A DNA stretch of 64,000 nucleotides, from the NCBI GenBank assembly GCA_951406725.2, contig OX597827.1, forward strand, positions 61,814,001 to 61,878,000. The letters run 5' to 3'. Under the pieces are notes generated by a model. That model did not search any database, was not told where the DNA came from, and saw only the letters and a list, made by a program, of their open reading frames with translations. How positions within the stretch are numbered: position 1 is the stretch's first letter; each line of letters starts with the position of its first letter. Of this stretch, positions 24,691 through 59,585 are shown in pieces. Source of the DNA: Octopus vulgaris. Taxonomy: Eukaryota. The position numbers were made by a program, and so were the translations under genes.

Positions 24691-24739
<49 letters not shown>

Positions 24740-27700
24740 AGAGGCTTCTTTCAGATTCTGTCTACCAAATCTACTCACAAAGCTTTGATCAGCCTGTGGC
24801 TATAGTAGAACACCTCTACCAAGGTGCCATGCAGTAGGACTGAACCCAAGACCATGCAGTTAGGAAGCAAGTTTCTTACCACAAAGCCATACCTGTAATG
24901 ATTAAAGAAATTTAAGAATTATGTTTGTCAGGCTGCAGTGAAGAGCAGAAGTTTTCATTAATGGAAACCTTAATTAATGTATGTGTTCAGTCGACAACAA
25001 ATTTCACTCTGCATAGATTTTTGTGTATATTCCTCGTCATTTCTTTTATATTTCAGGTTTCAGTTCTGAGTCATTTGTTTGGTCCGGTTACCTGAAACAT
25101 GCCAAAGCCTTTGCGGCACCAAAACACTTGTTTGTAAATCTTCATACACAGGTAAGTGGGGCTGAGGCAGGAGGAGGGCTTTGTTAAAAACCACTTCAAC
25201 GAAATAGTGTTTGAGAGTATGTATGCATTAACCCTTTTGTGACTGTATTTATTTTGAGATGCTCTGTGTTTCTTTCAATTACTTCAAATATAACAAAGAA
25301 TTTAGTAAAATAACTTAATTATCATTCAGCTAGTGTTAGGAACATAAATTGCGACTAAGGTTTGGTGGAAGATTTTAATTCAGAACTTATGAAAACAAGA
25401 CATTTGTACTATCGAGCCAGAGCCGGTTTTGGCCGGGTTGGTAACGAAAGAGTTAATTATTTCAGTCCTGATATTATTAGCAATAGTCATGGTAGTGACA
25501 GAGACCGTTGACGATGTGCTGGGCTTGAGAAGACTCATCAAACGAAGTGAAATCGTAGTTGTGGCCGTTGCTGGTGTCATGTAAATGTCATCCACAAAAT
25601 TGTAATCGTAGCTGTTGAGGCAGATTTTTTCTACAGCTCGATGCCCTTCCTGTCACCAACCCTCACCTGTTCTCAAGTAAGGGAATATTTACCCATGTTT
25701 TCATGGGAGATTGGAAACAAAGGATACAACGTGCATGACTTTGACATTCATTTACAACTATCATCTGAAATCCTGGCAAGGTGACAGTAACACACACACC
25801 CACACAGACCCACATGATCTTCGAATGTTGGGACTCATGGAGGTGAGGCAAGAAGTTGTGAAACATAAGCTTCAAATGTTGAGATTCACTGAGGGGATGA
25901 CAAGTGATTGAGACCTTGGTAGTATGCTGTGCTTGAGGGTTAGGGCTAGGTTTCACCTAACCCTAAAGCTGACAGAATCATGAGCATGCTAGGCAAAATG
26001 CTTAGTGGCATTTTGTCCGTTTTTACATTCTGGGTTCAGATACTGCCAGGGTTGACTTTTCCTTTCATTCTTCTTTTTTTTGTGGAGTGGTGGTGGTGGT
26101 CTGTAAAATAAGTACCAGCTGAGCACAGGGGTCGATGTAATCAGCTTATCATCTTCCCTGAAGCTGCTTGGCCTTGTGTCAAAATTTGAAACCAGTATTC
26201 TACCTGATTTATATTCAAAATGGCCTGATCTGGTCTCTCCGCACCTATCCTACAATCTCCTAATAATCCTTTCTACTTATAGGCACAAGGCCTGAAATTT
26301 AGGGGGAGGGGCTAATTGATTGCATTGACCCCTGTGCTCTACTGGTACTTACTTCATCAACCCCAAAAGGACAAAAGGCAAAGTCAACCTTGGTGGAATT
26401 TGAACTCAGATCGTAAGGATGGATGAAATGCCGCTTAGCAGTTTGCCTGGCAAGCTTGGGGCAACAGTTTCTGCTGACTTATACCTAGTAAACAGTTAAT
26501 AAAAGGGAGCTAATCATTTCTTCATAATATTAGGTGGGAAGAGAAGTCTGAATTTTGAAATTAAAGAATTATAAGGAAAATGATGCATAGAATACACATA
26601 TGTGATAATAATGTTACATATGACATATACAGTCACATACACCTACATTTTCATCTCAAGACATGAGCGTATTAAGTATCACATACTTTATATTGATGTG
26701 ATCCATACACACACACACGCTTCTATCCAACTCTTCTTGCTTTATACATCTGTAATAATTCCGTAATTGTTCCTGAATCTGACTGTTACCATTTGATTCC
26801 TTCCAGCCCATTGTGCCGAACCTCTTCCGTGTAGGGATGAAACTGGAGGCAGTCGACAAGAAAAACACAAGCTTGATATGTGTGGCAACAGTGGCTGACG
26901 TATTGGGCGACCGCATCTTGATACACTTTGATGGCTGGGAGGATGCGTACGACTACTGGTGCGACCCCACTTCACCTTATATCCATGCAGTTGGCTGGTG
27001 TAAGGAGAACAACGAAATACTCTCCCCTCCATGTGGTAAGTATTCTTCCATTCCTCTTTTTTTCAAAATGCTTTTTTGATCTTTGTTTTTACATTTATTG
27101 TATGCATGTGTATTTTTTGAAATACGAGATGAGTGAGTGTGTGTGTGTGTGTGTGTATTATTAAATGCATGACTATCTTCTATCTCTTACTTGTTTCAGT
27201 CAATAGACTGCGGCCATGCTGGGGCACTGCCTTGAGGAATTTTAGTTGGACTAATTGACCCCAGAGCTCTACTGAGTGTTTTAGCATGGTTTAACCTCTT
27301 GACAGAGTGTATTGAGTGCTTTTTTTTTGTGGCACTGGCACCATTGAGGTCACCAAGTAACTTGGAAGATAAAGATCCCTCAGCTGAGGTGGAAAGTGGT
27401 ATTGAGCAATTGAGCAAGGTGGCTTTATACATGGTGATGAGAGCTTAAACCATGATACACAAAAAAAAATAGATGTCTTACTGTAGAGGACATACATGGT
27501 TAACCCAGCTGGAGAGAGCGAAAGTGAGGGACTGATGTGGAAATGTGCTGGGTGTACTCTCAAGTACAAGGTGAATGTAAATGGAGAGTTATAGGACTGG
27601 ATTTAATGTGCATGTATGTATGTATGTATACATACACACACACACACATATATATCTATGTGTGTGTGTGTGTAATATATATAATCATCATCGTTTAACA

Positions 27701-28298
27701 TCCACCTTCCATGCATGCATGTGTAGGATGGCTCACAGGAGCTGACCAGGTAGAAAAACTACCCTATGCTACCCTGATTTGGCAGGGTTTTTACAGCTTG
27801 ATGCCCTTCCTAACACCAACCACTCTGCAGAGTGGACTCAGTGCTTTTTACGTGACACCAGCACAGGTGAGGTTAGTTTTGGGATGATATACATATATAT
27901 ATATAAATACAAAATGGAACAAGAATGCAAAACATCCAGATAGATGATACAAAAAAACACGGACGGGTCATTCGAAGCCTTTAATCTTCAGTCAAGAACC
28001 GGATCATCCTCGCAATTTCGGCTGTGTGTGTGTGTTTATATATATATATAATCATCTTTTAACATTCACTTTTTCATACATGTGTGAATCAAATAAAATT
28101 TGTTGGGACAGAATTTCTGTGGTTGGATGCTTTTCCTGTCCCCAACCCTCATGTTTCCAAGCAAAGTAATATTGCCCCATGACCAGCTATGCTTTCCACA
28201 AAAGACAGGCAACAGCAACATCCATCGGTTGTTATGATGGTGATGCTTGCCTGCAATCATCGCATATCAACTCAAGTGCACACACGAAAACACTTAAT

Positions 28299-28339
<41 letters not shown>

Positions 28340-31300
28340 CTTTGTTTCGCTTGATGGGTTTTTTTTTTCTGCATTTTCATTTTCCAGATTGGAAAGATCC
28401 ATTAAACTTTAGTTGGGAACGTTATCTTTCAGAGAAAAATGCGACAGCTGTACCTGCTCGAGCCTTTCGACCTGTAAGTACTTTGATCTGTATTTATTTT
28501 GCTACCAAATCAACCCCCAGTATGTATTTTTTAAGTCTGGTATTTATTCTAGAGGTCTCTTTTGCTGAAGTGTTAAGTTACAGGAACATAGACAAACCAA
28601 CGCTGGTTGTCAAGTAGTGGCAGGGAACAAAGACACACACACATAATATATATGAAGGCACATAGATTAATGGTTAGGGTGTTGCACTCATGATTGAAAG
28701 ATTGTGGGTTCAATCCCCAGACCAAGCGTTGCGTTGTGTTCTTGAGCAAAACACTTCATTTCACATTGCTTTGTGATCATTTAATCATCTGACATGTAGC
28801 ACACAGTGCACCTGTACAGGTAATGTCAGTTTGATGGAGGGAGTGAGCTTATTTGTATACAAACATTTGATCACTATAAACAAATCATCTGTGTGGTTGT
28901 TCGGCAAGAAATTGCCAAATCCCCCTATGTTGTCTAATGAGGGAAGAGTCATATCTGTCTGTCTGTCTGTCTATCTCTCTCCACACACACACACATATGG
29001 TGGACTTCCACACAATTTCCCACTATCAAATTCACTCACATGGTTTGGTCATCCTGGGACTAGACACTTGCCCAAGGTACCATGCAGTGACACAAAATCT
29101 GAACCATGTTGTTGCAAAGCAACCTTATCTACACAGCCATGGCACACTCACAAGCACACCCGCAAGCACACCCGCAAGCACACCCGCAAGCACACCTGCA
29201 AACACACCTGCAAACACACCTGCAAACACACCTGGAAATACACTCACAAACACACCCACAATTTTATTAATTCATGATATTTGATTAGTTGTATGAAAAT
29301 TTGGCATAATTATTGTATTTGATGGCATAAAAGATGCACAGATGTACCTCAGTTTCGGCAACACATATTCAGGAAAAGACATTTTTTTTTGTGTATTAAC
29401 CCTTTAACATTCAAACCGGTCATATCCAGCCCAAATATTCTACTTGTTTTCTGTTGAAAATGGCCAGATCCAGCCTCTCACACCTACCCTGCAATGTCAT
29501 TCGAAAAGTAAGCTACAGCATCATCGAAATCCCAAAGCTATGAGGTAATACATGATTACTTCAAACCACTGTAAATAACTATTACATTTGGCTGAGTAAT
29601 CTGAATACTGAAGGGTTAATGTACTATTTAAAGCAATCTGGCAGTACATTATTTAAAGGTTGCAAAAGCACTTTAGTTATAGCAGAAAACATTACTTTAT
29701 CTAAAAAGTGAGTTAGCAGTACAGCTGAACAGAAAGCAAGAAGTCAGGCTTGGTAGAAAAACCATCTGGATTGAAATCAGCCTATAGTCGGTGTCAGGGA
29801 CAAAATTAACTTATGGGAGGCTCAACTTCACATATAGGATATTCTCTTTTACTCTATTTTACTTGTTTCAGTCATTCGACTGTGGCCATGCTGGAGTACC
29901 GCCTTTAGTCAAGCAAATCGACCCCAGGAATTATTCTTTGTAAGCCTAGTATTTATTCTATTGGTCTCTTTTGCAGAACCACTAAGTTACGGGGATGTAA
30001 ACACACCAGCATCAGTTGTCAAGCGATGTTGGGGGGACAAAAATAGACACACATATATATACATATATGTGACTGGCTTCTTTCAGTTTCCGTCTACCAA
30101 TTCCACTCACAAGGCTTTGGTTGGCCCGAGGCTATAGTAGAAGACACTTGCCCAAGGTGCCATGCAGTAGGAATGAACCCGGAACCATGTGGTTCGTAAG
30201 CAAGCTACTACTTACCTCATAGCCACTTCTATGCTGGGTAATATTTTATTTTTTTTTATTTTTGAAACATTTTTTGGGGAAATGTTGCATCTTACATGTC
30301 ATCAAATATGGTAATTGATTCAATGTTGTTTTTGTATCCCTATTTTTAAAATCCCTTTTTGATATTTATATATTTTCCACCCTGATACAGCGTGCCCCCG
30401 TAAGCTTTGAGGAAGGTATGAAAATTGAAGTGGTCGACAAGCGCAATCCTATTCTTATACGTGTTGCTACGATAGCCTCAATGTCAAAGCATCGAGTGAA
30501 GATTCACTTTGACGGCTGGTTGGACATCTATGACTACTGGTTGGACGATGATAGTCCAGACATACATCCACCTGGCTGGTGTAACAGAACTGGACATATT
30601 TTACAGCCTCCTATTGGTAAATGTTGCATTTTTTTATTTCACTTTGACTGATGTTGCTTTATCTCTTCCTTTGTGTGTGTATTTGTATGAGTGTATGAGT
30701 ATATATTTGTGTGTATATTTGTGCAAGTGTATCTGTGTGTGTGTGTGTTTGATGTGTGTGTGTATTTGTATGAGTGTATGAGTATATATTTGTGTGTGTA
30801 TCTGTGTGTGTGTGTGTGTTTGATGTGTGTATGTATTTGTGTGTGTATTTGAATGCGTCCGTGTATATGTATTAGTGTGTAATGAAGTGCTTTACACGAG
30901 CACAACACACAATTGAAACTACTACCTTATGATTTTGAGTGCAACGCCCTAACCGAGCGTTTCTCAACTGGGGTTCCCTGGAACCCTAGAGTTCTGCAAA
31001 AGGGTCCTAGGGGATCTGCGAGAAAGAATGAGATAAGCTAATGTTAATTTCATGATCATTATATATATATATATATTTGTGTGTGTGTGTGTGTGTGATA
31101 TTTATCACGTGAACTACAATGTTAAAATATGAGAAAGATATGGTATATAATGTTTTTCAAGCAGGGGTTCCTTGACACGTAATTTATTTTAAGTGTTACA
31201 CAAGGGTAAAAGTGTTGAGAAACACTGCCCTAACCACTAGGCCACATGTACGCGCACACACACATTTTCACATTCACATATGTGTGCACACACACACAAA

Positions 31301-32522
31301 CACAAACTGACACACACTGACACACAAGAACACACTGACACACATATACATATCCACACACACACACTCACAAACATACTCACAAACATACAAACAAACT
31401 TGCAAACACACCTGGAAACACACTCGCAAATGCACTCATAAACGCACTTGCAAATGCACCCACAGACACACGCACGAGCACACCCACGAGCACACCCACA
31501 AGCACACTCTCACACACTCACAAAAACACACACTCACACACACAGACACACAAACACACAAAACACTCACACCCACACATACACACAAACAAACACATCT
31601 ACACACACACACACACACAATCACACACACACACACCTGAACCCATGCAGTTAGTGTACATCAAAACTGAACTCCTGATTTCTTTCTCTCTGTTGTTTAG
31701 GTCCCGGAGACTTGACTCCTGTACAAGGCCAAGGTGGATGTCCCACACCTGGGTGCAAAGGTATTGGTCACATTAAAGGTGCTAAATATGCTGGACATCA
31801 TAGGTAAGTGTGGTTCAATTCTCGGCACTTTTCCCCTTCCTAATTTCATGTTTCTCCTTTAAATATTTATTTACTATTGAGACATTAGTTTAACAGATTC
31901 ATTGTTCAAAACCTTGCTGAAATTTTCTTTACCTTTAACCCATGTGTGACCAACCCGGCTGAAACCGGCTCTGGTTCTAAGTACAAATGTCCTGTTTTCA
32001 TAAGTTTTGAATTAAAATCTTCCACCAAACCTTAGTCACAATTTATGTTCCTAACACTAGCTTAATGATAACTAAGTTATTTTACTAAATTCTTTGTTAT
32101 ATTTAAAATTAACTGAAAGAAACACAGCATCTTAAAAGAAATACAGTAATGAAAGGGTTAAATCATTCTGGATTTGATAAAATACAGGCACAAATGTGGT
32201 TGTGTGGTTAAGAAGTTTGCTTCCCAACCATATGGTCTTGAGTTCAGTCCCACTGTGTAACACCTTGGGCAAGTGTCTTCTTTTATAGCCTGAAAAAAAA
32301 CCTGGTGTGTGTGTGTGTATGTATACACACTCACACACCCATACACACACCCACACCCACCCACACACCCACACACACCCACACACATCTGTGGCTGTGT
32401 GTAAGAAACTTGTTTCCCAACCAAATGGTTCTGGGTTCAGTTCCACTACATGGCACTTTGGGCAAGTGTCTTCTACTATAGCTTGTGAGTGGGTTTAGTA
32501 GATGGAAACTGAAAGAAGCCCG

Positions 32523-32557
<35 letters not shown>

Positions 32558-35500
32558 TCTTTGTGCCTGTGTTTGTTCCCTACTCCCACTGTTTGACAAC
32601 TGCTGTTGGTGTGTTTATGTCCCTATAACTTAGCAGTTTGGTAAAAGAGACCAATAGAATATATACCAGGCTTAAAAAATCAGTACTGGTGTCTATCCGT
32701 TTGATTAAAAACAAAAAAAATTCAAGATGGTGCTTCAGCATGGCCACAATCTAATGACTGAAACAAGAGAAATAATATATATACTCTTTTACTCTTTTAC
32801 TTGTTTCAGTCTCTTGGCCATGCTGGAGCACCGCCTTTAATCGAGCAACTTGACCCCGGGACTTATTCTTTTGTATGCCCAGTACTTATTCTATCGGTCT
32901 CTTATTCCGAACCGCTTAGTAAAGGGGACATAAACACACCAGCATCGGTTGTCAAGCAATGCTAGGGGGACAAACACAGACACACAAACACACACGCATA
33001 TATATACATATATTCGATGGGCTTCTTTCAGTTTCCGTCTACCAAATCCACTCACAAGGCTTTGGTCGGCGTGAGGCTATAGTAGCAGACACTTGCCCAA
33101 GGTGCCACACAGTGGGACTGAACCCGGAATCATGTGGTTGGTAAGCAAGCTACTTACCACACAGCCTCTCCTGCGCCTATAAAGGGTTATACAACTTGTT
33201 CTTTTCCTGTCTTGCAAGTTCTTGGCGACCCCAATAGTGCCTGTGATAGTGCCATAGAAAACCATGCCAAATCAGACTGGAGTCTGGTGCAGCCTTCCAG
33301 TGTGCCAGCCCAGTCAAACCATCCAACCCATGCCAGCACGGACAACGGATTTTAAATGATGATGTGATGATGATGACGATGATGATGATAACTTTTATAT
33401 ACTGACTTAGATTTTGAGATGGATTATTTTTCTCTCTCTCTTCAGTGCATCTGGTTGTTCCTATTCCCATCTGAATATGAACAAAGAGACAACGTTACAG
33501 GACCGGTTAGGTTCAACTCGAGTTGAAGAAGGAACTAGCACCCCTATTGGACAGCGACCAGCCAGAGCTATAGAACCATCAACGGTGACTTTGGAAATGT
33601 CGTGAGTTGAACCTGTGGTTTTATTTTCTCCATCTGCCTTTGTTCTTTTCCCTCACCTATGTTCCTTTGTCATTCATCTCATTTCCTTTCTTGTATAGTA
33701 ATTGTAGTGAATATGAGTGAGGACTGTTTGTAGGTTCTTTAGAGAGGAGCAACCACTGTCAGTCAATGGTGGTTTGTTGTGAAATATGTGAGTCTTTGTT
33801 TCGATTGCTTGCAATTTTTTATGAATACAGTTTTGTTTAGTGGACTTGTATGTGTGTGTGTGTTGGGTTTTAGGTGGTTTATGAAATTAAAAAAAATTTT
33901 TTTTTTAAGCACTCTGTCAGTTACGACGACGAGGGTTCCGGTTGATCCGATCAGATCAACGGAACAGCCTGCTCGTGAAATTAACGTGTAAGTGGCTGAG
34001 CACTCCACAGACACGTGTACCCTTAACGCAGTTCTCGGGGATATTCAGCGTGACACAGAGAGTGACAAGGCCGGCCCTTTGAAATACAGGTACAACAGAA
34101 ACAGGAAGTAAGAGTGAGAGAAAGTTGTGGTGAAAGAGTACAGCAGGGATCACCACCATCCCTGCTGGAGCCTCGTGGAGCTTTAGGTGTTTTCGCTCAA
34201 TAAACACTCACAACACCTGGTCTGGGAATCGAAACCGCGATCCTACGACCGCGAGTCCGCTGCCCTAACCACTGGGCCATTGCACCTCCACGGTTTATGA
34301 AATATTAGTGAACTATATTTTTTGAGAGAAATGGCTTTTAGAAGAGGAGTTAGAATTCTTTACAGTCACCAGCAATCATGAAATAAGAGAATTTCAGGAT
34401 GTGGAGATGTGAATTTGGGATAACAGTTTGATGTGACGATTGAAGGCATCTAGACTTGGGGCAACCTACTGTGGAGTTGTGAATGATACCCAGCGTAGTA
34501 GATGACAACCAGAGTGGAAGCTGGTTAATTGAATGTGGTGATTTGATTGAAAACTATGCAGTCTATGGTGGTAAAAATATCTGATCATGGGTAATGGCCA
34601 GATTTAGAGTAAGTTTAGGTGATAGTGGTCATGTGTGATGGTAATCGTTCGTGAATGGTATGAATGTCATTTGGGAAAATAAGGGTATGTGAGAACAGTA
34701 ATTGGTAAGTGGAGTAGAGCTAGGTCATGGAATTATTATGCTCATGTGGTGCAGGCATGGCTGTATGATTCAAAAGTTTGTTTTCCAACCACATGTGTTT
34801 TGGGTTCAGATGGACAAGTACCATCAACTGTATGATTGGTTTGGTACAAACAAAGCATTGTGTATAAATTTGATAGACAGAAATTGAAAGAAGCCAGATG
34901 AATATATATATATATGGTTAGAAGTTATATGGTTATACACACACATCTCTGTCTGTCCCTTTCTCACATCACCAATAGTAGAATACAAAAATTTCTTAGA
35001 TTATATTTCTTTTTAGTGTTCTTTTTGAAGGCGTTCATGTACTGGAAATATTTCCTTAGTTCACTTTCAATGTAACTAATTTTAGATCACCTCGAAAACC
35101 TTGTGTTAACATGTATTTTCAGGAATATTAATTTCAATGATATTTTCTTTATCTAAACATGTTAATACAATAGAAACAATTGTCGGCTTTGTAAGGTGAA
35201 TTCTGAAATTAATGATGTAATTTTCTCTTTACATATTTTTGTTATACACACACACACACATACGAAATATATGCATAGCATGGTTATAGGCATGTTTGTG
35301 AAGTTAAGATTGCTTCCAACCATATGAAACATGGAAAAGTGGATGTTAAATGGTCTATATGTAGATAAGTCCATGTAGGGTGGGTGTTCAATGATACCAT
35401 GTTGTTTTTGGTGAGGAACTCACAAGTGAGGAGAGCTTGGTGTTGGTACATCATCATCATGAAGAATCTAATTCTTTGCACTCCACAAATCCGGTTGCTT

Positions 35501-36972
35501 TCACTAAGTTTCCTTCCTCAAATGCTTCAGAATGTAACAGTAAGACTTTCGATTGACGGTCTGGCCCTGGGGGTGCACAATACCACATTTCTAGGGGTGA
35601 CGCTTGTGGTAGGTTTTCCAGGTTGCTTGTCATCTTCTAGGGATGGTCTTCCACTTTTGAAGTGTCCAGGCCATTTGAAACATAGTGTATGACCCATTGA
35701 CTCATTGTGGTAATCTTGCCGAAGCATGCTGAATGTCTCTGTAGCAGACTTCTCAAGTTTAATGCAAAATTTCATGTTGGCTCTTTCTTCCTGTCCATGA
35801 CAAAAATCGCAGACTACAACATACACATTGATCACAAAAACACAAATTTCACAACTTGCAAAGTAAACACAGCAGTGTTGTTCAGCACACTGCCTCATGA
35901 AGGTCACTGCTAGCTCTCACTGCACATGCAACCGTGTGCTGCCATCTGTTGGTGTGCTACAGAACTAGTTCAGGAACTATTTGATATCACCTTGTACATA
36001 CATACATACATGCATACATCTTTGTATATATGCGTATGTATGTGTATATATATTTATATATATTTACATGTATATAGTTGTGTATGTATTTATGTATGTA
36101 TATGTGCGTATACGTAAGTGTGTGTAGTGGATAAGAATATGTCAGAAAAGGCATATAATTGATATCTCTGATATTAGAGCATGAACTTTCAGGATATATA
36201 TCAGTTTGCTCCCAACGTTTGGTCTGCGGACCTCTGGTGGTCCACAAAGGTAGTACTGGAGGTCTGTGAACATGTTAAATTGACAGACCTTTCAATAATA
36301 TCCTGGGGTTTGTGGGAAAACTCATTTAAATAAAAGGGGTCTATGGTAGTGAAAAGGTTGCGAACCAGTGGTATATACCTATCCATGAAGGATTACATAC
36401 AAATTCTCACTTACTTGATTTTCCTTTTTTTTTTTGTAGCTAAACTATGTATATTTTTATACTTGTTCGTGTATAACTATTTTATAAATACATCGATGCC
36501 ATTAACAACTTCTGTCCACCGGTTATTTTATTGTACCTTATGTCTATGTGTTGTTGGCATCCTTCTGTCTGTCTTGGGAGACAATGGGGTTGCGCATAAA
36601 CTAATCCAGTCTGATTTTTACAATTCTTTTCCTCTCCAGTTTTGCGCAGGCCTGGGCTAGATGTAAGAAAATCCTGGGTAGCCCAATTGTCAGGATTCCT
36701 CTCTCGACCTTGCTGACGTAGTCCAAAGGAGTGCAGAGCATTACGTTTGGCACCAGCTTGGTTGCAGGAGCTGCCGGAAGAGTGTCGAGTCGAACACTAA
36801 ACTGCCTACGGGGCTCCACTCCGGATTTCTTTGAAGGTTATCTCCTGGATAGGGGCCCATACTGGGTACTGTCAGCTGGAGCCAGCTGAGCCCGGGACTC
36901 GTGTCAGGCAGGGTTGTCACTTCCTGAAGTAGTAAAGAAAATCGCTACCCACCACCTAGCCTATATATCTGT

Positions 36973-37014
<42 letters not shown>

Positions 37015-40000
37015 CATACATACACACACATATCTGTGTGTGTGGTATATATCTATGTGTGTGGTATGTATCTGTGTGTGTGTATAGTTTTTATGGTGAA
37101 TTCACAAAATAGTGCAGATAATTCTGTGTCAGCATAAAGATATATACAAGTAAAATTCAGATAACACTAGTAAAATTTGAAGCAAATAGGAAAGAAGTAG
37201 ACAAGATACTATGAAGAATATAGGCGAGTGAAAATATGTGCCTGTAAGGCTTAGAAATGTTCCGTCCAACCCATGCTAGCATGGAAAACGGATGTTAAAT
37301 GATGATGATGATGATGATGATGATGACACATACATGATGGACTTTTTTGAGTTTCCATCTCCCAGATTCTACCAAATCAACTCAAAGCTTTGGTTGACCA
37401 AGGTAGAAGACACTTGCCCAACATGCTGTGGAATGGGACTGAACCTGGAATCATGTGGTTGGAAAGCAAATTTCCTAACCACAGTCATGCTTGCACCCAT
37501 TTTGAATTAATTTTTTTTTATGCCTTAATAATTTTTTTATGCTTTAACCCTTTCATTACAAACCCAGCTGAAACCAGCTCTGGCTCTTTAATATACATGT
37601 CTTGTTTTCATAAGTTTTGAATTAAAATCTTCCACCAAACCTTAGCCACAATTTATGCTCCTAAAACTAGCTTAATGATAAAGTCATTTTACTAAATTAT
37701 TCATTATATTTAAAATAATTGAAAGAAACACAGAGCATCACAAAATAAATTCAGTAATGAAAGGGTTAATCATTTTTTTATTATATAATTATTTATGTAA
37801 CTCATTATCACCTGTTGTCATCAGTGCCTGGGGATCTCATGTTAATAGGGTATCCCATGTAGCTGAACATTGTGTGTGTGTGTGTGTGTTTGTGTGTGGG
37901 CATTTGTATTTACAAGTGTGGATGCATTATGTTTTCCTGTGTTTCTGTAAGTGCTGATATATTTATGTTTGTGTGATGGGTTTAGTTCTGAATATTTGTC
38001 TATATGTGTATGATATGCTTTACAGCGATTTTTTTTCTTCTTCTTCCTACTAATATTATGTCTTCTACCAGGAAGGCTTCAGTCAAGTCTCCCATTCTAT
38101 TTTTACTTCTTTCTCCTCATATCAGTCTCTTCTATCTTCTCTCTGTCCATATGACTCTTCCAAATGCTCCCTCATATCAGCCGTCAGCCACTTGTCTGTC
38201 TTCCTCATCTAGTGCATCTGCCTCCTGTCTTGCCTCTGCCTCCCATGTCTCGTACATCCACTCCTACCTTGTCCTGTACCTTCACGCACTCCTTCCTCTT
38301 CCTCCTGACTTCCATACTCAACTTCAGTCTCTTCGTCTCTCCAATCTCTTACTGTACATTTTACATCTACTTCTCTGTCAGTATGGGTTGGATGGGTATG
38401 AAAATGCAAGCCTTTTGCATGGAATGTTGGAAAACCTTTTTTTTTTTTACAGCTGGATGGCCTGCTCTACCTTAAGCTAATAACACCCAACCACACTATC
38501 AAACCAATAAACAATCCAACCAACTGGCTAGCCAATCAGCTATGGAGTGGTGATGGTGATGGCAATGATAGTTGTGGTGGTGATCACTACTTTTTCTTTT
38601 CAGCTAGGTAGTCACTAGAGATGAGCAAATACCATCATCTTATTGCCATCATCTTGACCGTTATTGCTTTCATCCCTGTTAATGTCACCACACTCATTAA
38701 TATCGCAATTACCCGCATCACCACCTTCATCACCATCATCATCAGCCTCATATTGTAATAAACTGTTGAGCCTTCCTCATCTCTGATTTCTAACTGCTAG
38801 AATGGTACTCGTTTCTCTTGATTTCCCGCTGTTTGTGAAGGGTTATTGAAGTTCCTTACCTGTTCTTTATGTTAGTCTGTTCCTTAACCCTTTCGTTACC
38901 AACCTGGCTGAAACTGGCTCTGGCTCTGAGTACAAATGTCCTGTTTTCATAAGTTTTCAATTCTCAGAACTTTTCACCTTCCTAATTTCATGTTTTTTTT
39001 TTAAATATTTATTTACTATTGAGACATTAGTTTGACAGATTCATTGTTGAAAACCTTGCTGGAATTTTCTTTACTGTTAACCCATTTGTGACCAACCCTT
39101 CTGAAACCTGCTCTGGTTCTAAGTACAAATGGCTTGTTTTCATAAGTTTTGAATTAAAATCTTCCACCAAACCTTAGTCACAATTCCTAACACTAGCTTA
39201 ATGATAACTAAGTTATTTTACTGAATTTTTGTTTATTTAAAATAATTGAAAGAAACACAGCATCTCAAAAGAAAAAAATACGGTAATGAAAGGGTTAAAG
39301 GTTGCAAGCTGGCAGAATTGTTAGCACACCGGTATTTCATCTGTCTTTGTGTTCTGAACTCAAATTCTGCCGAGGTCAACTTTGCCTTTTATCCTTTTAG
39401 GGTTGATAAAATAAGCACCAGTTGGGCACTGGAGTCAATGTAATTGACTTACCTCCTCCCCTGAAATTACTGGCCTTGTGCCAAAATTTGGAACCAATAT
39501 TAATCTGTTCCTCTTGGTTTTTTGTGTTTTTTTCCTTCTGGCTTTTTCTCTTATCTTCTGGTCAGTCTTGATAGAGCAGATGTGTTCATAGGTATTTCAG
39601 CTATGACCAATATTGTGTCTTATGGATTCCATTATCCTATGTGTCCTTTAAGATGGTAGGGTGTAAATTGAGGGAGATTTCACTGTTATTTCTAGCAAGT
39701 TGAGTAACTCCACAGCCACTCCTTCATTAACCCGGTTCCCTTTCTACCTCCTTCTCTTCTTCCTAGAACTGTTGTCTCTCCATTATTAGTTGATCTTGAT
39801 TATGATTTCAGTTGAATTTAACATGCTTTTGACAAGGATTTAAATGTGCGCTAATAATATAGGTAGGTGGCCAAGTGTAAATAGTAGAAAAATCTTCAGT
39901 GAATGTTCCAGCCCTTAACTTTGTGGATCTACTATGCTGCCCTCACTTGGTTTACAAACTGTCTTTTCTCCTGTTCTTCAGGGCTTGCTTGCTTGCTATG

Positions 40001-40206
40001 TCTTTGTCATTCTCAAATTAGGGCATATAGATTCTGTAAAAGTGCCTGTGTGGCACCATGTAAAAGCACCCGTGCAGTTGCATGTAAAGGCAGCCAGCAC
40101 GCTCTGTAAAGTGGTTGGTGTTAGGAAGAACATTCAGCTGTAGAAAGCATGCCAGATCAGACTGGAGTCTACTACAGCTTGCCAGTTCTGGTCAAACTGT
40201 CCAATC

Positions 40207-40242
<36 letters not shown>

Positions 40243-43200
40243 CATGTGTGTATCCATCCATTAATCCATTGATCCATCCACCTTATAATGAATATAGGCG
40301 CTTAATAGAGAAGCTGGCTTGTACAACAAGTAAAAGCAGCTGTGCAATCTCACATAAAAGCATCTGTGTAGCCTCATGTAAAAGCACCTGTTCGGTGCCA
40401 TGTAAAGACACCCATGCAGTGCCACATAAGAGTGCCTGTGTAGAGCCATGTAAAAGCACCTGTGTCAGGCCATGTAAAAGTGTCTGTGTGGCGCTATATA
40501 AAAGCACCCGTGCAGAGTCACATAAAAGTGCCCATGCAGAGCCACATAAAAGTGCCCATGCTGTGCCATGTAAAGGATATCGTGCAGCGCCATGAAAAAG
40601 AGCGTGTGCAGCGCTTGTAAAAGCACCTGTGTGGAACCACATGAAAGCACCCATGTAGTGTCGTGTCAAAGCATCCAGCACTCTCTGTAATGTGGTCGGC
40701 ATTAGGAAGGGCATCCAGCTGTAGAAACCATGCCAGATCAGACTGGAGTCTGGTGCAGCTCCTCAGCTTGTCAGTTCTGGTCAAATCTTCCAATCCATGC
40801 CAGCATGGACACTGGATGTTAAATGATGATGATGATGTGTGTGTGTGTGTGTGTGTGTGTGTGACTATTACAATGAACACAGTGGACAGAACTTGAATAA
40901 AGGTGCATAGTTGAAAATAGATGGACTGGGGTACCACTTTGAAGGGTTTGGTCGAACAAATCAACCTCAGTACTTATTTTTTTTTAAAGCCTAGTACTTA
41001 TTACAAACAAATCATCTATGCAGGGTTTTCAGCAAGAATTTGTGGAATCCTCATGTATCGTCCTTGACAAGTGAAGTCCTCTATGTCACCATCTATTTCC
41101 ATCCTGTCTGTGCAGGCGCTGGCATAGCTGTGTGGTGAGACCACATGGTTCCAGGTTCAGTCCCACTGCATGACACCTTGGGCAAGTTTCTTCTATTATA
41201 GCCTTGGGCCTGCCAAATCCTCGAGTGGATTTGGTAGACGAAAACTGAAGGAAGTCTGTTGTGTGTGTGTGCGTGCGTACGCACTCACTCACTCACTCAC
41301 ACACACACACACACATTTCAGGTTCAATAGTTATGGCCAGGATATTATTGAAGTTAGGGGGTTATATGTTTTGAGTTTAAGTTTTCAGGTACTGGTTATG
41401 TAGTTGTGTGTGTGTTTGTGTGTTGTGTGTGTGTGTTTGTCCCCTATCACTACTTGACAACCATTGTTGGTTTGTTTACATCCCCATCAGTTAGTGGTTC
41501 AGTAAAGGGAACCAATAGGACAAGTACCAGGCTTTAAAAACAAAAATTAGTACCTGGGTCAAATTCATTTGACTAAAAATTCTTCAAGGCAGTGCCCCAG
41601 CATGGCCACAATCTAATAGCTCAAACAAGTAAAACAAATGAAAGAGGGTAGATATATGCTGTTTGAAGTGTTATAAAATTGATCTTTATTAGATTCTCAA
41701 GATATCAAGGCATCAGTGCCTGTCGTTCAGAGAAATTCGGCTGCTGCATAGACGGTGTAAAAGCTATCACATTGAAACCCCTATTCACATGTGTGTGTGT
41801 ATGTGCATGCATGCATGTGTGTATGCCTGTTTGTGTGTTTGTGCCTGTGTGTGTGTGTATGCTTGTTTGTATGTGTGTGTGTGTGTGTGTGTGTGTGCAT
41901 GCATATTTGTGTACACCTGTTTATGTGTGTGTGTGTTTGCACTTGCATGCATGTGTGTATGCCTGTTTGTGTGTCTGTGCCTCTGTGTGTGTGTTTGTGT
42001 ATGCCTGTTTGTATGTGTGTGCATGCATGTGTGTATACCTGTTTGTGTGTGTGTGTGTGTGTGCATGCATGCATCCCTATTTGTGTGTGTGTGCATGCAT
42101 ATGTGTGTATCCCTGTTAGTATGTGTGTGTGTGCATGTATATGTGCGCATACCTGTTTGTGTGTGTGTGTGTGTGTGTGCACGCATGCATATGTGTATCC
42201 CTGTTTGTATGTGTGTGTGTGTGTGTGCATGCATATGTGCGTATACCTGTTTGTGTGTGTGTACTTATGAGAAAATGAATGATATAAAAAAATAAGACGT
42301 ATGATAATGAAAGAGAGAGAGAAAGAGAGAGAGAGAGGCTGACTTATTAGAGAGCAGATTGTAACAACAACAACATCAAAAAAACATCAAACGTCACCGT
42401 CCAGCTGCAGCATAAATAAATTTGGTCTGCTGGTGTTTCAGGAGGAAGTGCCCAACTCCTGGATGCGATGGGGTTGGTCATGTGACAGGTAAATACTCTG
42501 CCCACCACAAGCTGTCTGGCTGTCCCTTGGCTGAGAAGAACTTTCTGAAGATGGCAAGCAAAGTGAAAGAGGAACCGGATGCCAGCACAGATTCTTCAGA
42601 TACCAAGTCATCGTTGCCTGCTGTTGTCTCTGGCCCTGGACGGAAGAAGTATGCACTTTGTATATATGTATATAAATATATGTATATATATAATATCTTA
42701 GTTTCTGTTTAGTTTTTAATTTTTATTTAAATTTAATTAATTGATTTTTTTTTTTTTTTTTTTTTTAATTATCAACCTGCTTGTTTACATGCTAAGTTAT
42801 AGTGGTTGTGGCCTAGTTACATATTTGTTATTTTAGCTGTGATGACCAAATAGCTTCTCATTTTATTTGGCTTAGCTGTTATTATGACTGGGTCATTCTT
42901 GAGCTATGCTCGTATGGTCATTTATTAGACATAACTATGACCAGATAATCTTCAACTGAGATAGCCTTATTAGCCTTATTTATTTAGCTTAGCTATCATG
43001 ATGAAGTCATTTTAGGCTGTGTTAGTTTGGTCATTATTTGTCATAGCTATAATGACCAGGTCATTTTCAGCCATGATGGCCTGCTCATTTATTTAGCTGT
43101 TGAAATTAACCATCTGTTGAGATGGTCATTTTCGGCTATGGTTCGTTAGCATTCTGGGCAAAATGCTTAGCAGCATTTCATCCATCTTAGTTCAAATGCC

Positions 43201-56490: not shown

Positions 56491-57642
56491 TGTGTGTGTA
56501 TGTATGTGTTTAATATATATATATATATAGCAATAAGAAAATGGAGGAGAACAATAGGTGGTTCATCAACTTTTAGACATTATATTATGTTAACTTATTT
56601 ATTTAGTTGCTAAACTGATAATTACAATAATATACATAGATATAACATAGTATTCTTTACATATAAGTTTTAAGATATAAAATATAGTAATATATAAGGA
56701 TACTAGTAATTATTATAAAAAACATGAATATAAATTGGGAAAATAACTTACAGCTGTTTCAGCCAATAGATAAAAATACCTCATTCTACCTTTATTACTC
56801 AAGTGGATTGAAGTATTAGGTAGATGAACATGAGGTACTTGTATATATCTCTAGGCTTCATCAGAGATTATAAAGTACATAATGTTAAGTTATAATAAAT
56901 ATAAAATAAATAAAATACACACATTTGAATACTTATATATATATATATATATTTTTATATAGATATAAATATACATACATATATAGATATACATAAATAC
57001 TGATATCTATACTGAAATATACGTACATATCTACATCCATAAGCATATATAATATTCAGTTATTAATAATATTAGATGCATTCTGTTATTCACAATAATA
57101 TTTTTATTAATATTTAGCAGAAGCAACAGATTGACTCAAAGTGCATTGGTACAAGTGCCAATGTATAGAACTCTTGGCCCTTGAGTCATTTTGTTACTTG
57201 AGCTAAATATTAATAAAAACATACACATACTCATGTTTTGAGTTCTATTTTTGCTGTTTGCATCACCATACCTCTGTGTATGTGTATATATATATATATA
57301 AAATGTGTGTGTAATTGGTAATTTCTGGTTCATCGAAGTTTGTTTTTTCCTCTTCAGATTTAAATATCTTTTTCCGAATAAAGTGAAAGAAGAAAAAGAA
57401 GACAAAAGTTGTGAGTATTTGCATCTTTTCTCATCTCCTTGTTACTCGCTATTGGTTCTGTTAGTCTTTTATTTTGGAATGTTTAACATCTCCATCCAGG
57501 TATTGGAGGTGTTCAATGAAGCCCATTCTGTTGTAACTATTCAGACCCTTATCTGTGCTTGAGATTAAGATCTTCTCCCTTTATCTTACTAATTATGAAA
57601 GCCCTGTATCAAGGTAGGGCAAGATTCTGCCTCTCCTTTGAC

Positions 57643-57949: not shown

Positions 57950-59585
57950 GTATATGTATGTATATGTATATGTATATGTATATATATATGTATATGTATA
58001 TGTATATGTATATATATATGTATATGTATATATATATGTATATATATACATACATATACGAGCGAGCAAAATGGCCAGTGCTGAGTTGTCAAGCATTTAA
58101 ACCAAATTTTCTCAAAACAACTTGTCCGACTGTCCCATAGGCAGAATCGTTAGCACGCTGCACGAAATGCTTAGCGGTATTTCGTCTGCTGTCACGTTCT
58201 GAGTTCAAATTCCGCCGAGGTCAACTTTGCCTTTTATCCTTTCGGGATCGATAAATTAAGTACCAGTTACGCACTGGGGTCGATGTAATCGACTTAATAC
58301 CTATGTCTGTCCTTGTTTGTCCCCTCTATGTTTAGCCCCTTGTGGGCAATAAAGAAATTATTATTATTATTATTTTATTTTTCAGTTGAAACCAATGTAG
58401 ATGAGTGCCACAACAACAATGGCAGTATGAATAGTCAGCTTCACCACGGGGTGCACCGGTCGGTATTCATGTCTGCCCTTGCGCCAAACCCTTCCAAAGA
58501 TCTTCCATTGTGTTGGGAGCAGCACTCCAAGCTGTTGCCTGGCGTCGACAAAATCCGAGGTGACCATGTGGCTGAGTGGAAGGTCGATGACGTTGCCAAT
58601 TTTATCAAAACTCTTCCTGGCTGTATTGACCTGTCCAAAATATTCAGGGATGAAGTGAGTTCCTCATCTTGAATCCTTTTTTTCTTCATCTGACAGCCTT
58701 CTTCTACTTTTATCTCTCAACCCCCCTCTCTCTGTTTCTCTTTCTTTCACTTTCAACTTTGACTTTATTCTTTCTACTTTATTTTCTTTCTTTCTTTTTC
58801 CATGACTTTAAAATGTTCTTTGTTTTTTTGTTTCTCCCTTTTTGTCTCTCTCTCTCTCTCCTTTTTGTCTGTCTTTTTCTCTCTTTCTGTCTAATTCTCT
58901 TTGTCTCTCTCTCTCTTCCTTTGTCTGTGTGTCTTTTTCTCTCTTTCTGTCTAATTCTCTTTGTCTCTCTCTCTCTTCCTTTGTCTGTGTGTCTTTTTCT
59001 CTCTTTCTGTCTAATTCTCTTTGTCTCTCTGTCTCTTCCTTTGTCTCTGTCTCTTTTTTTCTCTTTCTGTCTAATTCTCTTTGTCTCTCTGTCTGTCCCT
59101 CTCTCTCCCACTTCTGTGTTATGTGTCTCTCACTCCCTTTCATTCCATGTCTGTCTCTTGTTTTTCTCATCCCTCATCTCTGTTTATATGTATCACCCTT
59201 TTTCTCTTATATACTTTCTCTCTCTTCCTCTTTGTTGCTGTCTTCATCTCTTTTTTAATCCTCCTTTTGCATGTTCTCTCTCTCTCTCTCTTTTTCTCTC
59301 GCACTCTCCCCCTTTGCTTATTCTGTCCATCTTTATTTCACTCCTTTTCTCATTTCCCCATCCCTCTATATCTCTTTCCATTTCATTTCCCTCACTTCCC
59401 CACATACTTCCACTCACTCACCGAACCTCTCATTCTTTTTTCTATCCTTGCAGCACATTGATGGTGAAGCTTTTCTCATGCTTAACCAGACTGACATTGT
59501 GAAGATCTTAAACTGCAAATTGGGACCGGCACTGAAGATCTTCAACAGTATCCTGATGTTTAAAAGTACTGCTGATGTTGATTGA
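7637..59585 (+). CDS. l(3)mbt: lethal(3)malignant brain tumor-like protein (L3MBTL1/3/4 family), whole multi-exon CDS: 19 coding exons, about 1418 aa, 3xMBT + 2xC2HC zinc finger + SAM
   Basis: All exons listed below join in frame with GT-AG boundaries (summed length 4257 nt = 1419 codons including TGA). The translation shows three MBT repeats (GMKLE..D...HFDG.....DYW), CPTPGC C2HC fingers and a SAM domain ([28 protein letters not shown]). Confidence 0.93.
7966..8413 (-). mobile_element. SINE family B tandem dimer with about 17-bp TSD
   Basis: ATA(A/G)ATGGAGGATTCTT on both sides; two head-to-tail units. Confidence 0.8.
9591..9670 (-). ncRNA. Minimal type-I hammerhead ribozyme (Penelope-like type)
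   Basis: Minus strand: uuc-CUGAAGA-GAAAGaCACAAU...AUUGUGgCUUUC-GAAAC-ACGU-GUA-gaa. Core, stem II, palindromic loop 3 and stem I are all present. Confidence 0.75.
10066..10402 (+). mobile_element. SINE family A, near full-length tRNA-derived copy
   Basis: A-box TGGCTGTGTGG, B-box GGTTCAGTCCC, then ccttgggcaagtgtcttc; more than 20 partial copies in the window. Confidence 0.85.
10760..11102 (+). mobile_element. SINE family C copy with about 60-bp internal tandem units and (GAT)n tail
   Basis: Three gtgccggtggcacgtaaaaagcacc units, then ggttggcgttaggaagggcatccagc. Confidence 0.8.
11555..11756 (+). mobile_element. Penelope-like terminal-repeat fragment with decayed hammerhead, abutting (TA)n
   Basis: tcGACGA-a-GAGCtccGCTC-GAAA at 11631-11653; the element runs directly into (TA)n at 11756. 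Confidence 0.5.
12385..12780 (-). mobile_element. SINE family A full-length copy
   Basis: Reverse complement of the 10066-10402 family, with high similarity. Confidence 0.85.
12940..13071 (+). CDS. l(3)mbt: l(3)mbt coding exon 2 (GVINVKTAG...Ala10...TMVK)
   Basis: ttttttcAG acceptor; G|gtaatt donor; phase 1-1. Confidence 0.8.
13212..13581. repeat. 19-bp pyrimidine-rich minisatellite (CGCCTCGCTTTCCTTCTTT, about 15 units) followed by (CT)n(AT)n
   Basis: Direct reading of the tandem units. Confidence 0.9.
14388..14619 (+). mobile_element. SINE family B inserted into a family A copy (TSD AGAAACTGAAAG)
   Basis: The family A sequence is interrupted at gaaactgaaagaag and resumes after the same motif. 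Confidence 0.8.
15161..15380. mobile_element. piggyBac-type MITE family D (220 bp, TIR CCCTTTCGTTAC, TTAA TSD)
   Basis: TTAA|CCCTTTCGTTAC ... GTAACGAAAGGG|TTAA; further copies at about 23250, 25230, 31937, 37545 and 38885-39297. Confidence 0.85.
15626..17073 (+). CDS. l(3)mbt: l(3)mbt coding exon 3, large low-complexity exon (Thr/Ala/Pro/Gln-rich, Q16, P11) ending in [16 protein letters not shown]
   Basis: 1448-nt open frame (track ORF 15685..17097); ggcAG acceptor; AAG|gtgagg donor; the end matches the conserved L3MBTL N-terminal motif. Confidence 0.9.
17407..18302 (-). pseudogene. Decayed mariner (DD34D) transposase with 3' TIR
   Basis: [22 protein letters not shown] and [13 protein letters not shown] motifs with 34 residues between the last two Asp; frameshifted and 5'-truncated. 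Confidence 0.9.
18705..18864 (+). CDS. l(3)mbt: l(3)mbt coding exon 4 ([12 protein letters not shown]...NPECN)
   Basis: Continues the motif (cf. L3MBTL3 GSDLKFRVNEFGALEVI); atAG acceptor; G|gtatgt donor; not in the ORF track. Confidence 0.88.
19065..19525. repeat. Degenerate (CA)n/CACATG low-complexity tract inside a family A SINE
   Basis: Direct reading. Confidence 0.85.
20102..20162 (+). CDS. l(3)mbt: l(3)mbt coding exon 5, Cys-rich small exon ([20 protein letters not shown])
   Basis: ctctccAG acceptor; TA|gtaagt donor; phase 1-2 is exactly what is needed to link exons 4 and 6. Confidence 0.8.
21027..21229 (+). CDS. l(3)mbt: l(3)mbt coding exon 6 (basic RKKKRK NLS-like stretch; VKQE)
   Basis: Poly-T tract then aacAG; open frame [24 protein letters not shown]...AIA; G|gtatgt donor. 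Confidence 0.82.
21471..21888 (-). mobile_element. SINE family B tandem dimer nested in an opposite-strand family B copy
   Basis: TSD TAAAATAAGTAC on both sides; the host copy spans about 21350-21975 on +. Confidence 0.8.
23063..23148 (+). CDS. l(3)mbt: l(3)mbt exon 7, MBT repeat 1 arm ([22 protein letters not shown])
   Basis: F.W..YL.....AP..LF MBT arm motif; AG acceptor and gtaagc donor. Confidence 0.92.
23713..23947 (+). CDS. l(3)mbt: l(3)mbt exon 8, MBT repeat 1 core
   Basis: [65 protein letters not shown]. Confidence 0.96.
25057..25151 (+). CDS. l(3)mbt: l(3)mbt exon 9, MBT repeat 2 arm ([20 protein letters not shown])
   Basis: MBT arm motif; tttcAG acceptor; CAG|gtaagt donor. Confidence 0.92.
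26807..27035 (+). CDS. l(3)mbt: l(3)mbt exon 10, MBT repeat 2 core (methyl-lysine pocket D/F/W/Y intact)
   Basis: [59 protein letters not shown]. Confidence 0.96.
28388..28473 (+). CDS. l(3)mbt: l(3)mbt exon 11, MBT repeat 3 arm ([23 protein letters not shown])
   Basis: MBT arm motif; ttccAG acceptor; gtaagt donor. Confidence 0.93.
29313..30311. mobile_element. Old TA-flanked Tc/pogo-like MITE containing a nested MITE E (29397-29619) and SINE A (29846-30230)
   Basis: The left end ttgtatttgatggcataaaagatgca matches the reverse complement of the right end tgcatcttacatgtcatcaaatatgg. Confidence 0.55.
30391..30616 (+). CDS. l(3)mbt: l(3)mbt exon 12, MBT repeat 3 core
   Basis: [23 protein letters not shown]...[26 protein letters not shown]. 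Confidence 0.96.
30955..31227. mobile_element. hAT-type MITE with 8-bp TSD CCCTAACC
   Basis: TIR (c)AGCGTTTCTCAAC / GTTGAGAAACACTG; CCCTAACC at 30947-54 and 31228-35. Confidence 0.8.
31701..31803 (+). CDS. l(3)mbt: l(3)mbt exon 13, first C2HC zinc finger, N-terminal part ([21 protein letters not shown])
   Basis: CPTPGC motif; tttAG acceptor; AG|gtaagt donor; not in the ORF track. Confidence 0.93.
32388..33180. mobile_element. Two SINE family A copies tail-to-tail (32388-32770 on +, 32783-33180 on -)
   Basis: gactgaaacaag is followed within about 30 nt by cttgtttcagtc. Confidence 0.8.
33446..33601 (+). CDS. l(3)mbt: l(3)mbt exon 14, end of C2HC finger 1 ([16 protein letters not shown])
   Basis: Phase 2-2; completes the finger; ttcAG acceptor; TC|gtgagt donor. 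Confidence 0.9.
33897..34290 (-). mobile_element. SINE family F, full-length young tRNA-derived copy with polyA tail and 12-bp TSD
   Basis: Head ggaggtgcaatggcccagtggttagggcagcggactcgcgg...ggtttcgattccc; TSD GGTTTATGAAAT at 33876 and 34292; relatives at about 5940, 10430 and 22465. Confidence 0.85.
35370..35996 (-). mobile_element. Internally deleted mariner element (HTH region plus a piece of the catalytic domain, 5' TIR)
   Basis: [41 protein letters not shown] and [18 protein letters not shown]; TIR-like tacaaggtgatatcaaatagttcctgaactag. Confidence 0.8.
36202..36369. mobile_element. Degenerate hAT-like MITE
   Basis: Imperfect TIRs cagtttgctcccaac / ggttgcgaaccagtg. Confidence 0.5.
36548..36960 (-). 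mobile_element. GC-richer retroelement with RTE-5'UTR / Ceph-domain-like sequence and CAACAAC tail
   Basis: aaatccggagtggagcccc...ctcctgcaaccaagctggtgccaaacgta...cctttggac; the family assignment comes from my memory of RTE-derived elements. Confidence 0.45.
40320..40670 (+). repeat. About 23-bp degenerate tandem array (CATGTAAAAGCACCTGTGTGGCGC-like) expanded from the family C SINE head
   Basis: Repeated gtaaaagcacc units leading into the family C core at 40690. Confidence 0.75.
41788..42262. repeat. (TG)n/TGCA/ATGCCTGTT low-complexity array
   Basis: Direct reading. Confidence 0.9.
42442..42648 (+). CDS. l(3)mbt: l(3)mbt exon 15, second C2HC zinc finger ([28 protein letters not shown])
   Basis: Canonical MYT1-type C2HC finger; tttcAG acceptor; AA|gtatgc donor. 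Confidence 0.94.
43830..44200 (-). mobile_element. Decayed LINE ORF2 C-terminal fragment
   Basis: Frameshifted FY...YNG...[23 protein letters not shown] resembles the LINE terminal 'SFFPRTSALWNSLP' motif. Confidence 0.5.
46298..46490. repeat. Foldback palindrome, about 90-bp arms, 7-nt loop
   Basis: ...ctatctcatgtctctcctc-ttgttct-gaggagacacatgggatag...; the arms extend to (TTA)n and (TAA)n. Confidence 0.9.
46503..46985 (+). mobile_element. Probable LINE 3'UTR fragment with (AAT)n tail, inserted in an (AAT)n tract
   Basis: Complex sequence bounded by (AAT)n on both sides; it begins with an ATANILL-like ORF end. Confidence 0.5.
48471..48564. repeat. Perfect 47-bp tandem duplication
   Basis: aaactatgtaaaacatttgaaaaagaacctgagctgtttcttgcaat, twice. 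Confidence 0.95.
50462..51125. mobile_element. Tandem pair of MITE family E plus a family D-related TTAA MITE
   Basis: Two gttcaaactgaccagatc..ctctcacac..aatgctaaa units, then a ctttttgttacc...aaaagggttaa element. Confidence 0.7.
51457..51979. mobile_element. Tc/pogo-like MITE, TA-flanked, TIR CCGTAAATCCT
   Basis: TA|CCGTAAATCCTTG ... AAGGATTTATGG|TA. Confidence 0.75.
54923..55099 (+). CDS. l(3)mbt: l(3)mbt exon 16, charged linker ([12 protein letters not shown]...SSDDR), possibly a cassette exon
   Basis: 177-nt open frame with AG/gtgagg boundaries, phase 2-2; no homology motif, so less certain. Confidence 0.65.
56742..56871 (-). ncRNA. Minimal type-I hammerhead ribozyme with a greatly extended stem II
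   Basis: Minus strand: auaaucu-CUGAUGA-AGCC[long hairpin]GGCU-GAAAC-AGCU-GUA-aguuau. Confidence 0.75.
57358..57410 (+). CDS. l(3)mbt: l(3)mbt exon 17 ([18 protein letters not shown])
   Basis: Phase 2-1 is required to reach the next exon; ctcttcAG acceptor; T|gtgagt donor. Confidence 0.82.
57643..58058. repeat. About 415-bp (TA)n/TATG compound microsatellite
   Basis: Direct reading. Confidence 0.95.
58141..58375 (+). mobile_element. SINE family B copy ending about 10 nt before the exon-18 acceptor
   Basis: Family B body and tail ccccttgtgggcaataaagaaa(tta)n. Confidence 0.85.
58386..58654 (+). CDS. l(3)mbt: l(3)mbt exon 18, pre-SAM motif and SAM N-terminal part ([32 protein letters not shown])
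   Basis: Matches the L3MBTL '[13 protein letters not shown]' motif; GAA|gtgagt donor. Confidence 0.94.
58861..59100. repeat. 60-bp CT-rich tandem repeat, about 4 units
   Basis: Four consecutive 60-nt lines are nearly identical. Confidence 0.9.
59454..59585 (+). CDS. l(3)mbt: l(3)mbt exon 19, SAM C-terminal part and TGA stop
   Basis: [43 protein letters not shown]. Confidence 0.95.
   Translation, partial: HIDGEAFLMLNQTDIVKILNCKLGPALKIFNSILMFKSTADVD

Follow-up and report, generated by a model that had tools for sequence, protein, structure and literature searches.

A Hydra-clade Penelope-like element of Octopus vulgaris carries a hammerhead motif with an unusually long helix II and insertion ends clustered at its predicted cut

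The Penelope-like elements (PLEs) of the Hydra clade, e.g., Hydra-1_Obim (Craig et al. 2021, PMC8557442), encode an RT followed by a GIY-YIG endonuclease, and the marks of the clade are RWK, DKT, CxCX5C, CxxC and CxH, with no CCHH motif. As described in the same source, they target (TA)n tracts, carry a sense hammerhead in the pLTR and form partial tandems with inverted, 5′-truncated arms. Whole elements are generally <3 kb, the optional 3′ tail measures 30-40 bp, and the Hydra rows of File S2 (n = 26) give a loop 2 of 3-10 nt and a helix II plus loop of at most ~24 nt. The largest helix II entry of that file (~50 nt) belongs to the PLE-X1 hammerheads of Selaginella, a plant element described without an endonuclease, whose enlarged and structured loop 2 is flagged there as deviating. 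The minimal hammerheads of metazoan PLEs (Cervera and de la Pena 2014, PMC4209133) are of type I, with a palindromic helix III, a short helix I and a ‘larger than usual’ helix II of 6-8 bp; their predicted dependence on dimers has been formulated as a model (PMC4209133, PMC6765202). In Poseidon PAc of Anolis (Frangieh et al. 2024, PMC11167929), the hammerhead lies near the ORF start, and the two 3′ termini with their one-sided tail have been ascribed to two internal RT start sites; cleavage is reported as protein-assisted and dispensable in vitro, with no reads at the cut in the data presented. Finally, animal non-LTR retrozymes (PMC7229834; bioRxiv 10.64898/2026.07.22.740005) are described as short tandem monomers; their repeat is non-coding, low in GC and akin to PLE pLTRs, and it contains a type I hammerhead.

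The element reported here shares with the Hydra clade the domain order, the diagnostic motifs, the (TA)n targets, the sense pLTR hammerhead, the partial tandems and the inverted, 5′-truncated arms. It differs from the descriptions in PMC8557442 in a helix II plus loop of 90-114 nt, a 3′ UTR of ~2.5 kb, an optional 3′ tail of ~175 nt and a hammerhead sequence unlike that of Hydra-1_Obim. Type I topology, the palindromic helix III, the short helix I and the predicted need for a dimer are common to it and to the hammerheads of PMC4209133, whereas the motif studied here has ~34 pairs in helix II, which follows core position 9 without an intervening bulge. Like PAc, it has two 3′ termini and a hammerhead near the ORF start; in contrast to the published account of PAc, it shows an accumulation of genomic 5′ ends at the predicted cut and has its ORF start ~500 nt downstream. 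Its enlarged, structured loop 2 recalls that of the Selaginella motif, which has half the length. The retrozymes resemble it in their type I hammerhead and low-GC, non-coding repeat, but its copies are dispersed, variably truncated 3′ fragments of a coding element rather than short, head-to-tail tandem monomers. No PLE helix II of ~100 nt was found in the literature searched, outside of which lay Lunse et al. 2017 (PMC5785218), a paper that may list long-helix-II variants, and the supplements of PMC4209133. The long-helix-II motif is presented as a new structural variant of the Penelope hammerhead.

The motif was read on the minus strand, at 56871-56743 of the window, i.e., the whole 64,000-nt stretch of DNA that was analysed. 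The features referred to below are as follows.

56865..56871, minus strand: 5′ strand of helix I, AUAAUCU, from the sequence and a constrained fold; weak (2 bp, a bulge and 4 A-U pairs)
56858..56864, minus strand: catalytic core strand CUGAUGA, from the sequence; CUGACGA in most paralogues
56761..56857, minus strand: helix II, a 97-nt imperfect hairpin with 34 predicted pairs, closed by AGCC/GGCU, from the sequence and folding
56749..56760, minus strand: GAAACAGCUGUA, i.e., core strand GAAA, palindromic helix III ACAGCUGU (56757-56750) and the GUA triplet
Between 56749 and 56748, minus strand: predicted cut
56743..56748, minus strand: 3′ strand of helix I, AGUUAU, the first bases of the predicted 3′ cleavage product
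56529..57097, minus strand: 5′-truncated pLTR and 3′ UTR end of a Hydra-clade Penelope-like element, from paralogue alignments
56513..56528, no strand: (TA)n tract at the 3′ junction of the element, the usual target of the family, from the sequence
9585-9675, minus strand: the other hammerhead, of a separate and larger family with a helix II of 53-55 nt

The sequence-only reading had proposed this architecture, with a core at 56864-58, a long stem II, a palindromic loop 3 and a cleavage site at 56749/56748, and each of these coordinates was confirmed on the minus strand. The motif follows the type I order CUGANGA ... GAAA ... UH. Among 20 family representatives, 10 of the 12 positions of the GAAA/ACAGCUGU/GUA segment (56760-56749) are invariant and the other two are at least 90% conserved, while the palindrome itself is present in 19. 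When both strands of the window were scanned with a hammerhead descriptor, the 9.6-kb motif was the sole match besides this one. The core-N80-110-core pattern has 726 exact matches in the genome and its reversed control has 0, which excludes a chance origin and bears out the earlier expectations that chance was improbable and that paralogues would keep the core. By these sequence criteria, the motif is a hammerhead with an unusually long helix II, as had also been proposed (97 nt vs at most ~24 nt in the published Hydra hammerheads of File S2). No Rfam family, hammerhead models included, matched at this place at E <= 1; the long insertion is the likely cause, and the 9.6-kb motif was missed too.

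The motif region folds with z = -3.18, a value equalled by 1 of 200 shuffles. The hairpin is predicted to consist of stacked 11-bp and 7-bp helices, and the 11-bp helix, AAGUACCUCAU/AUGAGGUAUUU, has pair probabilities of 0.64-0.97. The three-way junction that the sequence-only reading had expected is not the predicted fold of the monomer: helices I and III have pair probabilities near 0, the closing pairs of helix II reach ~0.17, the core CUG pairs with the CAG of the palindrome, and constraining the RNA to the active fold costs 6.7 kcal/mol relative to the minimum. The pairing of helix II is backed by covariation (see below); helices I and III are compatible with the sequence, but the monomer model does not favour them. 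Given this predicted misfold, cleavage would probably call for a dimer; a dimer with a trans helix III formed through ACAGCUGU is predicted within 0.4 kcal/mol of the dimer minimum, in agreement with the dimer model of PMC4209133 and PMC6765202. The predicted misfold also fits the protein-assisted cleavage described for PAc (PMC11167929).

The window holds a single piece of the family, a solo remnant of 569 bp whose 3′ end falls at the short 3′ terminus of the family, ~+219 from the cut. A 221-bp query returned 1,407 genomic candidates, 40 of which were scored and showed 88-97% identity (self-match apart); most paralogues share the (TA)n 3′ junction. A second family match at ~50 kb was rejected, as it stems from a part of L106 that has no alignable counterpart in the remaining 3′ UTRs and probably represents a different repeat. 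The window copy, which carries a private change breaking one hairpin pair, is an antisense, neutrally decaying and likely inert remnant, and the locus itself is an ordinary transposon fragment. The sequence CTCCATTT occurs just before the short 3′ end in both families (56529-56550 and 9540-9560, minus strand), and it may be a candidate signal for the start of reverse transcription.

The ORF of the parent element was found by walking upstream to an RT fragment in L043, and 21 long loci around the RT were then examined. The pLTR repeat flanks the RT plus GIY-YIG ORF on both sides in the same orientation, with the hammerhead sense to the ORF. Of the 21 loci, 4 have the RT query 945-972 bp downstream of the 3′ end of the repeat, 3 have the hammerhead at a distance of 2.5-3.2 kb behind the endonuclease, and 5 carry an inverted copy of the repeat at the 5′ side. 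In L096 the pLTR passes directly into the ORF start, and L099 and L104 have colinear 3′ UTRs whose main blocks match at 72-80%. The clade marks listed in PMC8557442 were recovered as RWK in L103 and L107 (RWR in L096), DKT in L096 and L103, a CxCX5C linker in L098, and an endonuclease with CxxC and CxH in 16 of the 21 loci, one of these, L095, belonging to another family on the opposite strand; the CCHH motif was absent from the protein of the element in the loci translated. The single ORF, with the RT followed by a C-terminal GIY-YIG, has the Hydra-clade layout, and the (TA)n insertion preference, the pLTR with its inverted truncated copy and the one-sided tail are likewise those of the clade; in 27 of 30 head-to-head insertions, one 3′ end is long (~+390) and the other short (mostly +208 to +219). 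The palindromic helix III/loop 3 and the sense location in the pLTR are those of the dimer-type PLE hammerheads. Two typical, non-diagnostic traits of the clade, a length <3 kb and a compact hammerhead, are not found here. All four translated ORF copies are broken, and Pfam recognised neither the RT nor the GIY-YIG domain in three protein fragments; among the Atlas leads in neighbouring clusters, RVT_1 was found on 11-27% of members and GIY-YIG on 11%. Based on the diagnostic motifs and the ORF layout, we assign the motif to the pLTR of a Hydra-clade PLE, apparently an undescribed and largely decayed family of this type. The sequence-only reading stood as regards a minimal type I hammerhead with a palindromic helix III and core-keeping paralogues, and it missed the parent element.

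Two other elements were considered as the autonomous partner and rejected, a Neptune-like element beside L018/L031 and a Hydra-like element in L032; each has its own hammerhead and lies tail-to-tail with the family across (TA)n. The Neptune-like PLE (L031:4155-7230; L018:1-1230) comprises an RT, a zinc-finger linker, a GIY-YIG domain and a degenerate hammerhead. Different PLE families share the same microsatellites, the Neptune-like PLE and the long-hairpin family meeting at one (TA)n. Downstream of the RT thumb, the ORFs of L043, L096, L098 and L103 carry long (AAT)n inserts rich in asparagine, and inserts of this kind have been described for rotifer Penelope elements (PMC3846280).

The family at 9.6 kb, which the sequence-only reading had correctly called unrelated in sequence, has 6,476 exact genomic matches to its pattern (control 0). 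Many of its copies are inverted pairs, and a relative lies in the 3′ UTR of the Hydra-type ORF of L032.

The positions at which genomic copies begin were mapped twice. The first mapping, with an anchor near the 3′ end, covered 70 loci taken from the top of a list of 671 matches and gave 77 arms, 5 of which were dropped because they aligned to TA repeats rather than to the anchor; 24 arms start at -3..+30 relative to the predicted cut and none at -12..-4. The second mapping, with an anchor just after the cut, comprised 92 distinct copies among 93 matches. After removal of L295 as an internal deletion (which took the near-cut rows from 26 to 25), 25 of the 92 copies start at -2..+10 vs 3 at -29..-3, i.e., an end density of 0.024 vs 0.0017 per base at risk (p = 1.5e-8). 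The upstream edge of this cluster coincides with the scissile bond within ~2 nt. Additionally, 18 arm-to-arm junctions of the first set were chosen irrespective of the cut; the farther arm ends at -2..+11 in 8 of them and runs beyond the cut in 2 (scan P ~0.003 under a rough constant-hazard null). The edge shared by insertions and arm-to-arm junctions suggests that cleaved RNA was copied in vivo. Because 63 of the 92 copies extend upstream beyond -29, uncut (or circular) RNA would have been the main template.

The pile-up could instead mark the transcription start of a pLTR promoter, or TA microhomology together with RT drop-off at a structured motif. Penelope pLTRs are described as containing internal promoters (PMC3846280, PMC6765202), the ends are scattered over 0..+30 rather than placed at one base, and against the most TA-like upstream patch the excess is just 2.4-fold (p = 0.14). 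The 9.6-kb family, examined as a replication, showed no edge: 22 of 29 copies run through the ribozyme and 2 of 29 begin in the interval from the cut to the anchor, although in that family the 3′ product up to the short end would be only ~60 nt. Nevertheless, a start site or microhomology leaves unexplained why the edge coincides with the scissile bond to ~2 nt and why arm-to-arm junctions, which involve no target TA, show the same edge, and drop-off is difficult to reconcile with the nearly empty 27 nt upstream (helix III and the base of helix II), where only 3 of 66 at-risk copies end. We therefore regard these explanations as unlikely, if the most serious of those considered, and in vivo cleavage as the cause of the pile-up is favoured by a slight balance of probability. 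The pile-up at the predicted cut is a new observation.

The conservation of the long helix II was examined in 110 homologues, 1 of 111 hammerhead matches having been dropped as spurious; two more had no z value, leaving 108 for the folding statistics. The insert measures 90-114 nt in the 110 homologues (exactly 97 in 51), and although these homologues fall into 21 clusters up to 55% apart, a fold with z < -2 was obtained for 99 of the 108 copies (median -4.2). In 19 representatives, the median z was -3.8 for the insert vs -1.6, +0.3 and +0.2 for flanks of equal length. In 20 representatives scored on the named structure, 18 of 40 pairs changed on both sides (shuffle mean 11.0; 1/500), and 80.5% of cells pair vs 31-39% in slid controls; these covariation counts lean in favour of the hairpin, since the sequences are related and the structure was taken from the window copy. 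RNAalifold, run on the same number of representatives, gave only 9 pairs, including the CUG/CAG misfold, and did not recover the distal hairpin, for which reason pairs were counted on the named structure; the distal hairpin pairs in only 74% of cells. Mutation rates in inserted copies were 0.034 per site in helix II vs 0.032 downstream (69 of 129 copies, four clusters). Since inserted copies mutate equally in both parts, any selection would act on master elements rather than on genomic copies, and the hairpin was likely kept by selection in active master elements. L110 and L113 carry further hammerhead-like motifs with helix II segments of 86 nt that are unrelated to the long-hairpin family; a long helix II therefore recurs in the genome.

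Neutral baggage, such as a fold-back duplication that entered loop 2 a single time and was tolerated there, this loop pointing away from the core, would account for the near-equal mutation rates of the 69 copies, for the ragged distal stem of several subfamilies and for a palindrome that folds on both strands (the reverse strand reaches a median z of -3.0, almost as good). Nevertheless, both the length and the fold persist among the divergent clusters, together with the two-sided pair changes, and the unrelated 9.6-kb family of the same genome has its own extended helix II of 53-55 nt in 6,476 exact matches; we consider this explanation rather improbable, though only a little more so than the promoter and drop-off explanations of the pile-up. 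The sequence-only reading had offered two roles for the hairpin. That of a protein-binding handle is possible on the mechanistic model set out below. The other, a Dicer/Drosha or ADAR substrate yielding small RNAs or edited RNA, is suggested by the pre-miRNA size and the stacked 11-bp and 7-bp helices, by four twin-arm junctions at -44..-67 near the hairpin apex, and by the heavy A-to-I editing of cephalopods. It found no support, in that no ~22-nt arm of either strand is conserved across the subfamilies of the 20 representatives, no Rfam miRNA matched, inserted copies (69 of 129, four clusters) show no A>G excess (OR 1.19, p = 0.52), and the window copy is antisense to its host gene; the probability that remains for it is small. 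The junctions in or near the apex are those of L198, L278, L286 and L302, and both L286 arms fold back at the loop.

The window copy sits between exons of a plus-strand gene with three MBT repeats and a C2HC zinc finger (Pfam-type domains MBT and zf-C2HC, window 23680-42709), and it is thus antisense to that gene, in line with the antisense orientation given by the sequence-only reading. A probable SAM-like exon, read from the translation and with no Pfam match, lies downstream at about 58360-58650 (plus strand), and the layout of the gene presumably resembles that of l(3)mbt. Co-option of the copy by this gene as a regulatory intronic ribozyme, to which the intact core and the position between exons might point, is highly improbable for an antisense copy that is 88-97% identical to its paralogues, has no second family copy in the window as a pairing partner and carries a change that breaks a hairpin pair.

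Taken together, the data are probably best described by a type I hammerhead of a Hydra-clade PLE pLTR with a helix II of ~100 nt that is likely selected; for this hammerhead, cleavage is predicted to require either dimerisation or the aid of the protein of the element. In a partial-tandem transcript, two motifs would dimerise by way of their ACAGCUGU palindromes, and cleavage would follow GUA. The resulting 3′ fragment, of ~220-390 nt, would reach the two reverse-transcription start sites and serve as one of the templates copied, so many insertions would begin at the cut, while uncut RNA would yield the copies that run through the ribozyme. Insertions lie at (TA)n, and many of them comprise two inverted arms whose 3′ ends differ, one being long and the other short. 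The long hairpin is likely a stable scaffold that would pre-form helix II in a very AT-rich RNA, and it may bind the protein of the element. A stronger version, in which the Penelope hammerhead cuts in vivo, the short 3′ product templates twin-armed insertions and the selected 100-nt helix II is the protein handle that switches on a misfolded ribozyme, is put forward tentatively, and we would sooner expect at least one of its parts to fail.

The function of hammerheads in PLEs has been called unclear (PMC8557442), and insertions that start at the scissile bond offer a direct test of their role in these elements. The long helix II widens the known architecture of the hammerhead and shows the reason why standard searches miss such motifs; since compact descriptors would pass over them, thousands per genome may go uncounted. 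The family has hundreds of copies in the genome, and the starts at the cut suggest that the ribozyme likely cut the RNA of the element during its spread.
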